64,000 bases of DNA from Escherichia coli (GTDB taxonomy: Bacteria > Pseudomonadota > Gammaproteobacteria > Enterobacterales > Enterobacteriaceae). The stretch is taken from NCBI RefSeq assembly GCF_001677475.2, contig NZ_CP015229.1. One strand, written 5' to 3'. Positions 11,347-12,629 of this stretch are shown here, one piece after another (the first letter of the stretch is position 1; the number at the start of each line of letters is the position of its first letter). The notes below the pieces were generated by a model. That model did not search any database and was not told where the DNA came from. It saw only the letters and a program-made list of their open reading frames with translations. The position numbers and the translations under genes are program-made.

Positions 11347-11534
11347 CTTATATCCTCCTAAATCTGGAATAATGATTTCTTAAAAAAGAGCGTTAACCGC
11401 TCACTATTATTTATATGGGGATTGTTTTTAATTTTTCAACCCCTCACATTTATCTCTTATATAATGTATTTATACACGAGATATGTTAAAATGTTATTTA
11501 GATGTTATCAGACGTGTTAAATGTGTTAAACCAC

Positions 11535-11627
11535 AGCACGAATTGCTAAAGCGGAGAACACGAATTAACCAAATTGATGTTTATTCAATCAATTTAGAAA
11601 ATTGCATAGCACGAATTGCTAAAGCGG
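11535..11627. promoter_or_regulatory. Two copies of the 20-bp element AGCACGAATTGCTAAAGCGG (11535-11554 and 11608-11627), each partly palindromic
   Basis: Exact 20-bp direct repeat read from the sequence, within the divergent non-coding control region. Confidence 0.5.
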
Positions 11628-11825
11628 TGAGCATTAATTGAGCTATGAATTGTAAAGATTTGTTACAAGATTTTCTCTCAGATCCAAATCTTCACAGACA
11701 TATAACAATTTAACAAGAGGATAACAATGTATAAAGCAGAACATCACAAAGGATGGATTTGGGAGTATAATCTACTTCTTCCGGCATGTCAACACCATGA
11801 CAAAATCCCCAAGATTCCACCTGAA

Positions 11826-11990
11826 ACCTACACTACAATCTATATGGGGACACTATTTTATTTTTCAAGCCCTACACTACAAACCTACACTTTAAAGGGA
11901 TTGGCCTACACTACACTAGCCAGTAAACCTACACTAGAACACGCTCAAACCTACACTATGAAACCTACACACCTACACTAACCCTACACT
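11826..11990. repeat. Iteron cluster: about 9 direct copies of (A)CCTACAC(T) within ~165 bp
   Basis: Repeats counted directly (AAACCTACACTACAA, GCCCTACACTACAAACCTACACTTT, GGCCTACACTACACTAG, AAACCTACACTAG, AAACCTACACTATG, AAACCTACACACCTACACTAACCCTACACTT). Confidence 0.7.
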
Positions 11991-12629
11991 TCAATCTCGT
12001 AAGTGTATGATCTTGAAAGACATTTCACCCCACAGACCATAGAATATAAAACTCGAACTAACGTTCTCCTTTTTGCTCGCTTTCTCTCACTACGTTCAAG
12101 AAAGAGATCTCGCAAAAAGAATACGGCGTAGCCGTGCGCGTAGCGCCCATCAACACCTTCTAAGACCTGCAAGCAGGATTCGAAAGGGATTGGATAGTTC
12201 GCTTCGCTCACGTTCACGCCTACGGCGTTCACTCACTTCTGAAAGGATTTTCTCGAAAGGGATTTTAATACTAGTTACTAACTGATTCTAGAAAGATAGT
12301 AATAATCACTTTGAAGATAATAGTTACTAGATCACTTTAATGATCATGAAAGGTATTGGTATCCCTTCGGGATTGCAACCTTCGGTTGCTAAATTACTTC
12401 CTGATTACTTTTACATCAAAAGAGTATTTCTATATGTATTAAGATCCTTCTCTCTTTTGATGTACTTTTAATCAAATCATGAAGGAGGGCTTTAGCCCGA
12501 CTGAATACAATCCCTTTCAAGTACAGACCAGTTTTGGACTCTACCAGACCACTCTTTCCATAATAACAAGAATTTTCTCTTTATAAATAATATTAGATTG
12601 ATTCACTTTCTTTTAGAGGATTACCGATT

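Follow-up and report, generated by a model that had tools for sequence, protein, structure and literature searches.

What does a stretch of DNA without genes do between the diverging gene clusters of a prophage? The codB gene of the Escherichia coli chromosome examined here, within a window of 64,000 nucleotides, holds a prophage truncated by IS3. As a preliminary description of the window had stated, genes diverge from a gap in this prophage, leftward from 11164–11346 (−) and rightward from 12630–13100 (+). That description named a replication origin, a packaging or partition site and a structured non-coding RNA as candidates. This gap constitutes the early control region of temperate siphophages of E. 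coli that form an uncharacterized family. With a probability of about one half, judged from sequence comparison, it would combine an iteron-type origin, a new family of initiators and hairpins resembling priming signals, joined to a lysis–lysogeny switch.

The prophage family and its gene-free gap

Intact relatives of the prophage are about 35 kb long and carry tail and lysis genes. No recognizable replication gene (helicase, primase or loader) was found in an intact 35-kb relative, and the early proteins of the family gave zero matches to Pfam, PHROG and NCBIfam. A gene-free gap of 1.2–1.6 kb lies at the same position in every relative, including the two most diverged. The gap sequence was found in 57 of 5426 complete E. 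coli genomes, while megablast against phage and plasmid collections returned zero matches. Metagenomes and a protein-pattern scan of viral contigs yielded E. coli-type variants only, with no deeper divergence. The gap is composite and consists of a left half, a 20-bp box, a repeat array in the middle and a right half with hairpins.

It is highly improbable that the gap conceals one or more small protein genes. There are open reading frames of 52, 84, 82 and 43 codons, and the 84-codon frame has a good ribosome-binding site. Nevertheless, none of them is kept across the relatives, where they contain frame-shifting indels or are absent, and frames traverse the repeat array in changing phase. As no open reading frame in the gap is conserved among relatives and none of the 57 E. 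coli genomes has an annotated feature there, the initial view of these frames as spurious holds.

The repeat array and the adjacent 328-aa protein

Two features are central to the argument:
11827–11990, + strand: iteron array, nine direct (A)CCTACAC(T) repeats with spacings of 44, 13, 21, 23, 22, 14, 8 and 11
10060–11046, − strand: gene for a 328-aa orphan protein, the proposed iteron-binding initiator

CCTACAC occurs 14 times in the whole window compared with 3.95 expected, and no shuffle reached 14. Nine copies lie on the + strand between 11827 and 11989 (163 bp), in line with the roughly nine direct repeats first described at 11826–11990. Two inverted copies had also been reported, at 9811–9838. 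These are real, although they are located at 9819–9828 and 9837–9846 and inside coding sequence, as is a further inverted copy at 10830–10836. The inverted copies encode the C-terminus NKPTQHKKPTLRVVA of an 80-aa open reading frame and the VKPTL of the 328-aa frame. Only one of the copies at 9819–9828 and 9837–9846 is kept in relatives, and in a phage of repeat type C the same C-terminal peptide is encoded by CCTACC. The outlying copies at 9819, 9837 and 10830 are probably by-products of K-P-T-L/Q codons.

At least five interchangeable types of repeat occupy the same place among relatives. The preliminary description had named absence of the repeats from related islands as a refutation; related elements have an array here with different repeat sequences, an informative outcome that leaves the reading unrefuted. 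Across the types, 8–20 phased direct repeats are spread over 110–250 bp, and in types C and E two repeat clusters flank an AT-rich spacer. The array of the window has a best period of 11.2 bp with a coherence of 0.85, that is, the repeats fall on one face of the helix. Types A–D each gave a best period of 10.5–11.3 bp. Random placement equaled the periodicity of A, B, C and D in 14, 22, 17 and 122 of 1000 trials, respectively, and the Fisher-combined value, by our own arithmetic, is p ≈ 4 × 10−4.

The N-terminal domain of the 328-aa protein, about 170 aa long, is variable. It is followed by a coiled coil and an acidic linker, and the C-terminal part has a conserved LHDxxYxTN motif. Its C-terminal half has the same architecture across types, with weak sequence similarity between them. 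No NTPase motif, known domain or membership of a known Rep or O family was recognized. A homologue search returned only near-identical “hypothetical proteins” of E. coli and Shigella (202 database clusters). When the N-terminal domain was searched exhaustively, three of 1.84 billion cluster representatives were real matches.

Repeat type and N-terminal variant change together. Of 28 loci with both parts visible, 14 were A/A and 14 B/B, and a second set gave 15 A/A, 19 B/B and 3 C/C with zero discordant loci; the two sets overlap in part and the counts are not phylogenetically independent, with about five type switches underlying them. A homologue 45% identical to type A pairs with CCTGCACTAA repeats, one that is 76% identical retains CCTACACT, and a fifth protein variant pairs with TCCCCGGTATTAG and GATGTACAAGG repeats. 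Relative to the window, locus L003 shares the left half and the 60-aa gene (93%) and differs in both protein and repeats, while L002 shares protein and repeats and has a different left half. These comparisons show that the coupling holds across recombination. The small terminase, Rha and the 60-aa, 156-aa and 200-aa proteins do not covary with the repeats.

Some pac and cosB sites, as well as plasmid centromeres, contain arrays of direct repeats, and the genes for the large and small terminase flank the early region. An array serving packaging (cos or pac) or partition is nevertheless very hard to reconcile with its surroundings. Between carriers of type A and of type B arrays the small terminase is 92–93% identical, and directly upstream of terS, where cos usually lies, there is a 300-bp gap that is GC-rich and cos-like. 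For partition, no par genes are present and the element is integrated via a serine recombinase. Both proposals of the preliminary description are accordingly set aside.

The covariation and the helical phasing support the repeats as candidate cognate sites of a specific protein. An array that always changes together with the adjacent protein suggests a phage replication initiator of a new kind, along with its origin. Among the three readings first proposed, a replication origin fits best, given the perfect covariation and the phasing. The N-terminal domain of the 328-aa protein is predicted to bind the repeats. Like λ O or a plasmid Rep, the protein would assemble on the array and open nearby DNA. 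Its conserved C-terminal part would dock a conserved partner, possibly host replication proteins, because no helicase, primase or loader of the phage is recognizable.

The left half and transcription control

The left half and the start of the leftward operon contain the following:
11764–11792, − strand: promoter PL, TTGACA-17-TATACT, near-consensus σ70, 11 of 12 positions matching
11743–11771, + strand: promoter-like ATCACA-17-TATAAT, its −10 overlapping that of PL
11484–11530, + strand: five direct (A/G)TGTTA(A/T) repeats, specific to the left-half allele of the window, a candidate operator set
11402–11444, + strand: 43-nt element TATATGGGGA..TTTTTCAACCCCT, a GGGG..CCCC dyad around an AT-rich loop
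11382–11402, − strand: intrinsic terminator, stem GAGCGGTTAACGCTC and a run of six T, directly upstream of the ribosome-binding site of the 60-aa gene
11164–11346, − strand: gene for a 60-aa protein, first of the leftward operon

PL was located in 29 of 31 relatives, its spacer occurring in six or more sequence versions, and the stem and T-run of the terminator in all 31, with five different loop sequences. The promoter would drive the 60-aa, 328-aa and 80-aa genes via a leader of about 370 nt. Read by eye, the 60-aa protein appears helix-turn-helix-like; it has no family match. The 80-aa protein is a coiled coil. The rightward site at 11743–11771 is not conserved in other alleles.

A different left-half allele has LexA-box-like CTGT-N8-ACAG sites where the window has TGTTA repeats, three each in L002, L004, L009, L020, L025 and L039 and two in L008. 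No such SOS box occurs in the window's allele of the control region. The left half, PL and the terminator included, may act as a lysis–lysogeny switch governing expression of the putative initiator.

A second copy of the 43-nt element, 79% identical, is found at 11831–11873 between iterons 1 and 2, and the other left-half allele also has one copy. The motif GAAAGGNATT is present in four copies in the gap. This motif, the 43-nt repeat, the TGTTA repeats, the leftward promoter and terminator, three extra mini-hairpins and an inverted repeat with 23-nt arms had not been listed previously.

The array lies 35–230 bp upstream of PL, and repeats upstream of the protein's own promoter would also suit a pure transcription regulator. 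The protein would then occupy sites upstream of both its own promoter and the rightward genes, activating or repressing them or setting immunity specificity, and the five types would be immunity or heteroimmunity types. That PL is conserved and expresses the 328-aa protein agrees with this, as does the existence of the left half as regulatory alleles, LexA boxes included. Likewise, no classical CI-like repressor is recognizable, and switching of type between relatives is how immunity regions behave. Nevertheless, arrays of 8–20 phased direct repeats, which in types C and E are interrupted by an AT-rich spacer, are a more usual feature of origins than of operators. The left-half alleles also recombine independently of array type, and thus regulation and array specificity form separate modules. 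Transcription control alone would, moreover, leave the phage without any candidate origin or initiator. It is considered a rather unlikely explanation of the array, and would make the locus an ordinary though undescribed phage switch.

The 20-bp box

The left half also contains AGCACGAATTGCTAAAGCGG in exactly two copies, at 11535–11554 and 11608–11627 (both +), 73 bp apart with none expected, just as the preliminary description had it. The first 17 nt of box 1 are invariant in six of six aligned loci, and the box is exact in most relatives; L182 is without an exact copy. Box 2 is preceded by AT, giving ATAGCAC, and reads ATAGCACGAATTGCTAAAG. At this position relatives have the “TTT” subtype ATAGCACTTTTTGCTAAAG.

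The genome paper on phage TLS (PMC11447400) reported a 21-nt intergenic direct repeat, aaATAGCACnnnTTGnTAAAA, in T1-like phages. By its sequence, the 20-bp box is a member of this unexplained repeat rather than simply the operator-like element first suggested. Boxes 1 and 2 both fit the consensus, with the “GAA” and “TTT” subtypes included, although T1-like phages have about 20 copies compared with one or two here. The T1-like repeat is promoter-associated. In 43 T1-like contexts, a −10-like element, TGnTAtaaT, starts 17 nt past the box and its TAtaaT hexamer 19 nt past it. A weak counterpart, TATGAA(T), follows box 2 at that distance; box 1 lacks one.

Viral contigs contain the exact 17-mer in 81 stretches, and many of the stretches lie in contigs 45–51 kb long with several copies each. 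The one such contig that was compared is a T1-like phage of the Rogue1/phiKP26 type. Scanning species-representative genomes for the 17-nt box gave 46 matches in unrelated taxa, about the number that we expect by chance. One of the 46 is relevant, an Erwinia prophage with the box just upstream of a cluster of tRNA, holin and lysozyme genes. Occurrence of the box in a temperate phage and in the Erwinia prophage points to a factor common to otherwise unrelated phages. This factor could be host-encoded rather than T1-specific, which bears on the very question that the TLS authors explicitly left open.

The right half: mini-hairpins and an AT-rich tract

From left to right, the right half contains:
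12123–12146, + strand: tandem mini-hairpins ACGGC-GTA-GCCGT and GCGC-GTA-GCGC, each with GCGTAGC, fitting GCGNAGC
12165–12176: hairpin CCTGCAAGCAGG; L038 has CCAGC..GCTGG, a compensatory change
12216–12228, − strand: mini-hairpin ACGCC-GTA-GGCGT, from a Watson–Crick hairpin search
12250–12350: AT-rich tract, 27% G+C, with direct repeats TAGTTACTA (twice) and ATCACTTTNANGAT (twice)
12361–12389, − strand: tandem mini-hairpins ATCCC-GAA-GGGAT and GCAACC-GAA-GGTTGC, each with CCGAAGG
12402–12474: AT-rich inverted repeat with 23-nt arms, 83% complementary, from a repeat search
12487–12498: hairpin GGGC-TTTA-GCCC with AAGGAGG before it, kept with variants
12563–12629, + strand: promoter-like ATAACA-17-AATAAT from a promoter scan, invariant TATAAATAAT and the ribosome-binding site of the 156-aa gene

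Eleven C(GNA)G mini-hairpins were counted in the window, five of them in a 267-bp stretch inside the gap compared with 0.06 expected. Two of the five are on the top strand, left of the AT-rich tract, and three on the bottom strand, one at the left edge of the tract and two to its right. Relatives show the same strand order, (+)(+)(−)(−)(−), with other stems and GAA, GTA or GCA loops. Such mini-hairpins, with the motif definition GCGNAGC/CCGAAGG adopted here, have been documented at the primase sites of phages G4, St-1 and α3 and at ssiA of RSF1010 (PMC13037366).

The imperfect AT-rich repeats first placed at about 12270–12340 are present at 12272–12344, with TAGTTACTA at 12272 and 12321 and ATCACTTT(G/A)A(A/T)GAT at 12303 and 12330. 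From its composition and repeats, the tract at 12250–12350 is a candidate DNA-unwinding element. By likeness to ssiA/ssiB of the RSF1010 origin and to the hairpins of the G4 origin, the C(GNA)G hairpins would form when the DNA becomes single-stranded and serve as outward-directed signals for priming or loading.

Tandem tetraloop hairpins had been described at about 12360–12390. Two adjacent GC hairpins are indeed found there, and both have triloops. The first contains three G's rather than four and therefore reads ATCCC-TTC-GGGAT, a 5-bp stem closed by a 3-nt loop. The UNCG/UUCG reading, that is, RNA on the + strand, was dropped on this base count. Tetraloops as a hallmark of RNA fall with it, since GNA/TNC triloops characterize DNA mini-hairpins at priming sites just as much as they do RNA.

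The right half (about 12000–12600) might instead be the structured leader of a rightward operon for the 156-aa protein, a 53-aa protein and Rha, or a separate non-coding RNA, with hairpins that serve RNA stability, processing or regulation. This is possible but on balance unlikely, and it could coexist with the origin reading of the array. On the + strand, 12255–12520 folds much better than shuffles (z = −4.7), and in six of seven relatives this strand folds slightly better than the other. Nevertheless, the minus strand of the window folds as well or better (z = −5.7 and −3.6), as expected for plain DNA palindromes.

The hairpins also occupy fixed positions with compensatory stem changes. At 12123–12146 relatives have GAA or GCA loops and the stem becomes GGGC/GCCC. 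The second stem at 12361–12389 is replaced by GCCCC/GGGGC, TGCAGC/GCTGCA or GACGCTC/GAGCGTC with a GTA or GCA loop. The inverted repeat at 12402–12474 is kept with AU, CG and GC at the same columns, and the hairpin at 12487–12498 appears as GGGC-TTT-GCCC, GGC-GAA-GCC, GGGC-GATA-GCCC or GCCCC-TAC-GGGGC. The RNAalifold covariation term of +0.7 understates these changes, which were listed by hand, as MAFFT misaligned the replaced stems. The stems of the small hairpins are, however, all Watson–Crick, being recovered by a search limited to such pairs, with G–U pairs in terminal extensions only. Their GNA/TNC triloops are spread over both strands and differ from tetraloops of the RNA type.

In favor of a leader, there is no terminator between the segment and the 156-aa gene; this gene nevertheless has its own promoter-like site directly before it, and a conserved rightward promoter upstream of the segment was not found, the candidates differing between alleles. 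A scan of the gap with the Rfam 15 covariance models gave nothing at gathering score and nothing relevant up to E = 10, the best E-values being 0.28–10, all far below gathering scores. Assignment to a known RNA family is therefore not supported. L179 lacks the whole 210-nt segment spanning hp1 to hp3, a further point against an RNA leader. This loss and the L175 hairpins, which are without GNA loops, also count against the origin reading, since those hairpins may be dispensable or replaceable.

Strength and consequences of the origin reading

In favor of an origin, the promoter of the putative initiator gene adjoins the array, and the arrays of types C and E, like that of the L002-type layout, contain or adjoin AT-rich spacers. 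In the L002-type layout, the 80 nt left of the array are 75–80% A+T; the flank directly beside the array of the window is 58% A+T. Against it, neither the DnaA box TTATCCACA (at most one mismatch) nor the IHF consensus WATCAANNNNTTR occurs in the gap, and the best AT-rich tract, at 12250–12350, is about 270 bp away from the array.

A more specific proposal is speculative and rather unlikely. The 328-aa family would be new replication initiators with exchangeable N-terminal recognition domains, in a phage without its own helicase, primase or loader, and the array and strand-specific C(GNA)G hairpins would recruit host primase or helicase directly. Such a priming design in the style of RSF1010 and G4 has not been described for a temperate double-stranded DNA phage.

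If the origin reading is true, one orphan protein and about 600 bp of DNA would make up a compact, self-contained replication module, with five natural specificity types serving as controls for one another. A new initiator family would join the few known for phages and give a function to the set of E. coli and Shigella “hypothetical proteins”. Orthogonal origin–initiator pairs would become available for engineering. With the hairpin cluster, the decades-old idea of GNA mini-hairpins as marks of priming sites can be tested directly in a double-stranded phage.

Comparison with known systems

Several parallels are found in λ. Like ori-λ, the gap has a phased array of predicted initiator-binding repeats, in some types with AT-rich DNA inside or beside it, and like O, the 328-aa protein combines a variable N-terminal domain, predicted here to bind DNA and set origin specificity, with a conserved C-terminal part for a proposed partner. 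Its gene follows a small helix-turn-helix-like gene in an early operon, and specificity types are exchanged between related phages as in lambdoid modules. Nevertheless, the protein has no sequence or fold similarity to O, and no P-like helicase loader is recognizable. Furthermore, ori-λ has four 19-bp dyads inside the O gene, compared with short direct repeats of 7–13 bp outside the gene here.

Phage-inducible islands such as the SaPIs also carry two sets of short repeats, one on either side of an AT-rich spacer, as in types C and E, and matched origin and initiator specificities that differ between related elements. Their initiators are helicases with a separate primase, unlike the present protein, which has no NTPase motif or known domain, and they are islands rather than full 35-kb phages with tail and lysis genes.

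With RSF1010 oriV and G4 the gap shares a two-part layout, in which iterons make up one domain and compact hairpins of opposite strands another, and the hairpins carry the CCGAAGG and GCGNAGC motifs reported there. In contrast to RSF1010, no RepB′-like primase or RepA helicase is encoded and priming is only predicted. RSF1010 has two hairpins compared with five here, which are absent or different in two relatives.

The iteron plasmids F, P1, R6K and pPS10 differ in their 17–22-bp iterons, much longer than the present repeats, and in having Rep_3-type winged-helix proteins and DnaA boxes, neither of which is found here. Nevertheless, in both cases direct repeats adjoin the promoter of the initiator gene, a putative one here, an arrangement that suggests autoregulation as well as initiation.

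Genomic setting of the gap

The E. coli chromosomal markers lacY, lacA, cynTSX and codBA lie at 31-38 kb of the window, and its REP elements match naRNA4. A prophage is inserted in codB and occupies about 7.85-30.5 kb, the interruption of codB being seen at 7840-7850 and 30900. Its recognisable genes are the following.

8528-9079, small terminase
15497-17404, lambda-gpA-type large terminase
portal, fused protease-capsid protein and tail-tube-like protein
tail fibre, ending at the IS3 copy 26329-27482
28012-29709, large serine recombinase

The IS3 copy truncates the prophage after the tail-fibre gene, with removal of tail and lysis genes. 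Intact relatives, one of which lies in ycdX of strain ETEC1739, are siphovirus-type prophages of about 35 kb that encode a tape measure, a tail tip and lysis functions; no replication gene is found among their annotated genes. Most relatives are inserted in ycdX rather than codB, and the serine recombinase or the att site therefore has more than one specificity. The capsid protein was best matched in the phage collection by Escherichia phage DCP80 (45% identical), other matches (such as phiHAP-1, VP882 and RcCronus) being about 30% identical.

Searches of Pfam, PHROG and NCBIfam gave no match for the early genes encoding 80, 328, 60, 156, 53, 85 and 200 aa, and the sole early gene with a family match encodes a Rha/anti-repressor-like protein. 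By eye, the 60-aa protein (11164-11346), the 85-aa protein (14546-14803) and the C-terminus of the 200-aa protein (14806-15408), all on the minus strand, look like paralogues with a (G)RP..F.RE start and a C-terminal ...Y..L.K.(D/G)IK... segment; none of the three matched a known family. Upstream of the small terminase gene, a 300-bp GC-rich gap (8228-8527) may be a cos region; it holds a C(GTA)G mini-hairpin, GTCGCGTAGCGAC, at 8390-8402 on the minus strand as well as one copy of GAAAGGGATT.

The gene-free control region at 11347-12629 (the gap) measures 1.2-1.6 kb in relatives and carries no annotated feature. It was matched in 57 of 5426 complete E. coli genomes, unannotated in all 57, and was present in every other relative examined, while megablast against phage and plasmid collections returned no match. 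The ORFs in the gap had been judged spurious in the preliminary description, and none survives comparison with relatives: a 56-nt deletion interrupts the 84-codon ORF spanning the repeats in one compared stretch (L001), this ORF is absent elsewhere, and an 82-codon ORF on the minus strand carries a frame shift even in the window. That the gap hides one or more small protein-coding genes is very improbable.

Repeat array and the 328-aa protein

The reported CCTACAC repeats are real, with nine copies on the plus strand at 11827-11989 and 14 in the whole window against about 4 expected. Two inverted copies of the motif also exist as claimed, but lie at 9819-9828 and 9837-9846, within coding sequence, and not where they had first been placed. 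In relatives, too, this position holds an array, and five repeat sequences were distinguished; the window is of type A.

Repeat array types
Type A: CCTACACT, about 9 copies
Type B: TTGCCCCTGAA, 8-9 copies
Type C: (A/T)TCCCCG(C/T)G, about 15-20 copies in two clusters around a 42-bp AT-rich spacer
Type D: CCTGCACTAA, at least 5 copies
Type E: TCCCCGGTATTAG, about 9 copies, and GATGTACAAGG, about 10 copies, around an AT-rich spacer of about 100 bp

In the type E stretch L182 (9566-11151), the gap measures 1.6 kb and holds both repeat families; the first gene differs (71 aa), and the initiator-like protein shows a fifth version of the N-terminus.

Array spacings were multiples of about 11 bp, with a best period of 10.5-11.3 bp in the four types tested (A-D). 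Random placements equalled the observed periodicity in 14, 22, 17 and 122 of 1000 trials for types A-D, respectively, and the combined phasing p was about 4e-4 (Fisher, our own arithmetic). The phasing of about 11 bp thus speaks for proteins arrayed along one face of the duplex rather than for an RNA motif.

Of the neighbouring genes, only the orphan 328-aa ORF (10060-11046, minus strand) varies together with array type; no such co-variation was seen for the small terminase, for Rha or for the 60-, 156-, 85- and 200-aa proteins. In type B loci, no similarity to the N-terminal 170 aa of type A was detectable, and past this segment the architecture is the same (coiled coil, acidic stretch, C-terminal LHDxxYxTN). 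Types C and E have further N-terminal variants with a common core motif, a hydrophobic strand...G...MxH(K/R)S(K/R)RN..G...FF. In type D, the protein shows 45% identity to that of type A and the repeat is one base off the A repeat; a protein 76% identical to type A keeps the A repeat.

Array and protein types agreed in 14 A/A and 14 B/B loci of a first set and in 15 A/A, 19 B/B and 3 C/C loci of a second, partly overlapping set; among loci with both parts visible, none was discordant. The window and L003, a relative locus, have the 60-aa gene (93%) and the left half of the gap in common and differ in both protein and array, while another, L002, shares protein and array with the window and has the other left-half allele. 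As judged from these sequences, the pairing survives recombination in the segment between the partners. The N-terminal domain of the 328-aa protein therefore very probably recognises the array as its cognate binding site. A packaging or partition site, as the repeats might also be read, has very little likelihood.

The initiator-like family is very rare: of 1.84 billion cluster representatives, three belong to it. At its C-terminus the 328-aa protein carries an (Ala-Tyr)n tail, for which a GCGTAG hexamer repeat of variable length codes (10060-10080; 11 copies at 2086-2152 of L004). The repeat unit is similar to the GCGTAGC motif found in hairpins of the gap. In most type variants, -AA forms the end of the protein. 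The following gene encodes 80 aa in type A (9802-10044, minus strand) and 333 aa in type C (L037, 2071-3072). Both products end in (K/R)PTLR(V/L)VA, which may be a conserved docking or degradation tag.

Left half of the gap

In the left half (11347-11800), two leftward signals are conserved.

11792-11764, minus strand, near-consensus promoter TTGACA-17-TATACT, in 29 of 31 relatives
11402-11382, minus strand, hairpin (five loop sequences) and T-run terminator, in 31 of 31 relatives

The promoter is kept although its spacer sequence differs in at least six ways among relatives. The predicted leftward transcript runs for about 370 nt before reaching the terminator, which directly precedes the ribosome-binding site of the 60-aa gene. 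Since the terminator sits between the promoter and this gene, the leftward operon, including the 328-aa protein, is probably controlled by termination and read-through.

The leader has at least two unrelated alleles among relatives. That of the window contains five TGTTA repeats and two boxes; the alternative contains two or three LexA-box-like sites (CTGT-N8-ACAG), of which the window's gap has none. These sites, e.g. TTCTGTATGAATTAACAGTG, lie at the equivalent of window 11450-11640 and were seen in L002 (4100-4220), L004, L008, L009, L020, L025 and L039. Their motif suggests direct SOS control in prophages with this allele. Left-half alleles recombine independently of the remaining region.

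The 20-bp box was correctly described as duplicated, occurring exactly twice with no occurrence expected. Its 17-nt core, AGCACGAATTGCTAAAG, is invariant in six aligned loci and exact in most relatives, with no exact copy in L182. An exact-match scan of viral contigs found the core in 81 stretches, up to three per contig. Many of these belong to contigs of 45-51 kb, of which the single one compared is a T1-like phage of the Rogue1/phiKP26/C119 type. A 21-nt intergenic direct repeat, aaATAGCACnnnTTGnTAAAA, is known from the TLS genome paper, with subtypes 'AAA', 'TTT' and 'GAA'; the authors called its role unknown and raised it as an open question (PMC11447400). The window's box (11535-11554 and 11608-11627) is the same element as this repeat of T1-like phages (TLS, T1, Rtp, Rogue1). 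Box 2 is of the GAA subtype in the window and TTT in relatives.

In 43 distinct T1-like contexts (L040-L096), an extended -10-like TGnTAtaaT begins 17 nt past the box, and the TAtaaT hexamer begins 19 nt past it. Counted from this fixed spacing, the box spans roughly positions -48 to -32, in a promoter lacking a normal -35. In the window, box 2 alone has a -10-like equivalent, the weak TATGAA(T). An Erwinia MAG prophage (L123, 2900-3020) has the 17-nt box directly past the stop codon of a gene and immediately before a cluster of tRNA, holin and lysozyme genes, and this box-plus-flank context recurs in viral contigs L059, L063, L069 and L073-L076. The box is therefore common to at least three unrelated phage groups.

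Right half of the gap

The whole window was searched on both strands for hairpins with at least 4 Watson-Crick pairs, C-G closing and a GNA triloop. Five of the 11 C(GNA)G hairpins lie within 12123-12389, where simulation at the region's composition gave 0.06 on average and never more than 2.

12123-12146, plus strand, two tandem mini-hairpins, each with GCGTAGC
12216-12228, minus strand, single C(GNA)G mini-hairpin
12250-12350, 27% G+C tract with direct repeats, between the two strand groups of hairpins
12361-12389, minus strand, two tandem mini-hairpins, each with CCGAAGG

The adjacent GC hairpins at 12361-12389 had been taken for tetraloops; the pair stands, but both have 3-nt loops (ATCCC-TTC-GGGAT and GCAACC-TTC-GGTTGC). 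The AT-rich repeats described nearby are present at 12272-12344. The gap holds four copies of GAAAGGNATT (three direct, one inverted), and the whole window 6 against 0.6 expected.

The strand order (+)(+)(-)(-)(-) recurs in relatives despite differing stems and loops. GGGC-GTA-GCCC replaces ACGGC-GTA-GCCGT, loops are GAA, GTA or GCA, and the right pair has as its second stem GCAACC/GGTTGC, GCCCC/GGGGC, TGCAGC/GCTGCA (other strand) or GACGCTC/GAGCGTC. Compensatory variation was also found in the long inverted repeat 12402-12474 and the hairpin 12487-12498. The small stems consist of Watson-Crick pairs, and no internal G-T pairs were seen in them. A recent review describes GCGNAGC and CCGAAGG mini-hairpins as exceptionally stable DNA structures, known from primase start sites of G4, St-1 and alpha3 and from RSF1010 ssiA (PMC13037366).

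Folding compared with shuffles gave z = -4.7 (plus) and -5.7 (minus) for 12255-12520, and -0.8 (plus) and -3.6 (minus) for 11990-12260. An excess on two strands is the pattern expected of plain DNA palindromes. The right half (11990-12630) might be a transcribed structured leader, which would be compatible with an origin; the plus strand folds slightly better in 6 of 7 relatives. This is nevertheless a doubtful reading, as GNA loops are divided between strands, the stems are Watson-Crick-only, and the gap has neither an Rfam match nor a conserved rightward promoter for this half. On these grounds we lean towards a right half that acts at the DNA level.

One viral contig (L179, IMGVR_UViG_2534682338_000010) lacks the hp1-hp3 hairpin block of about 210 nt by a clean deletion equivalent to window 12345-12555, and another stretch (L175) has different hairpins there. 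The block is therefore dispensable for persistence as a prophage. In L179 the deletion spans the two tandem hairpins as well as the long inverted repeat and the hairpin with the GGGC stem, leaving iterons and 156-aa gene intact.

Proposed replication origin

We propose, with a probability of roughly 0.5, that the gap contains a phage replication origin with the 328-aa protein as initiator. The left-half switch, with its promoter, terminator and operator alleles, would free leftward transcription of the operon. The 328-aa protein would bind the array through its N-terminal domain, as co-variation and phasing suggest, oligomerise by its coiled coil and open the nearby AT-rich DNA. Its conserved C-terminal tail may recruit a partner that is itself conserved. 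Host replication proteins are the probable candidates, since no primase, helicase or loader is recognisable in the phage. The mini-hairpins, by motif identity and strand order, might form once the strands are exposed and serve as signals for priming or loading; priming on the plus-strand template would extend leftward and on the minus strand rightward, outward from the AT-rich tract.

The gap contains no DnaA box or IHF consensus, and the 328-aa protein matches no known initiator family. A purely transcriptional role of array and protein is judged unlikely.

A phage early region with an iteron-type origin is already known in kind. The putative initiator family, its five natural specificity types, the clustered strand-sorted mini-hairpins and the box shared with T1-like phages are new. 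Although by sequence the gap module belongs to none of the lambda, SaPI, iteron-plasmid or RSF1010 systems, it resembles lambda O and ori-lambda functionally in its modular initiator with exchangeable specificity, and SaPI Rep-ori pairs in its repeat sets around an AT-rich spacer. Moreover, it is like iteron plasmids in having repeats beside the rep promoter, and like RSF1010 oriV in combining an iteron domain with separate hairpin signals on opposite strands.
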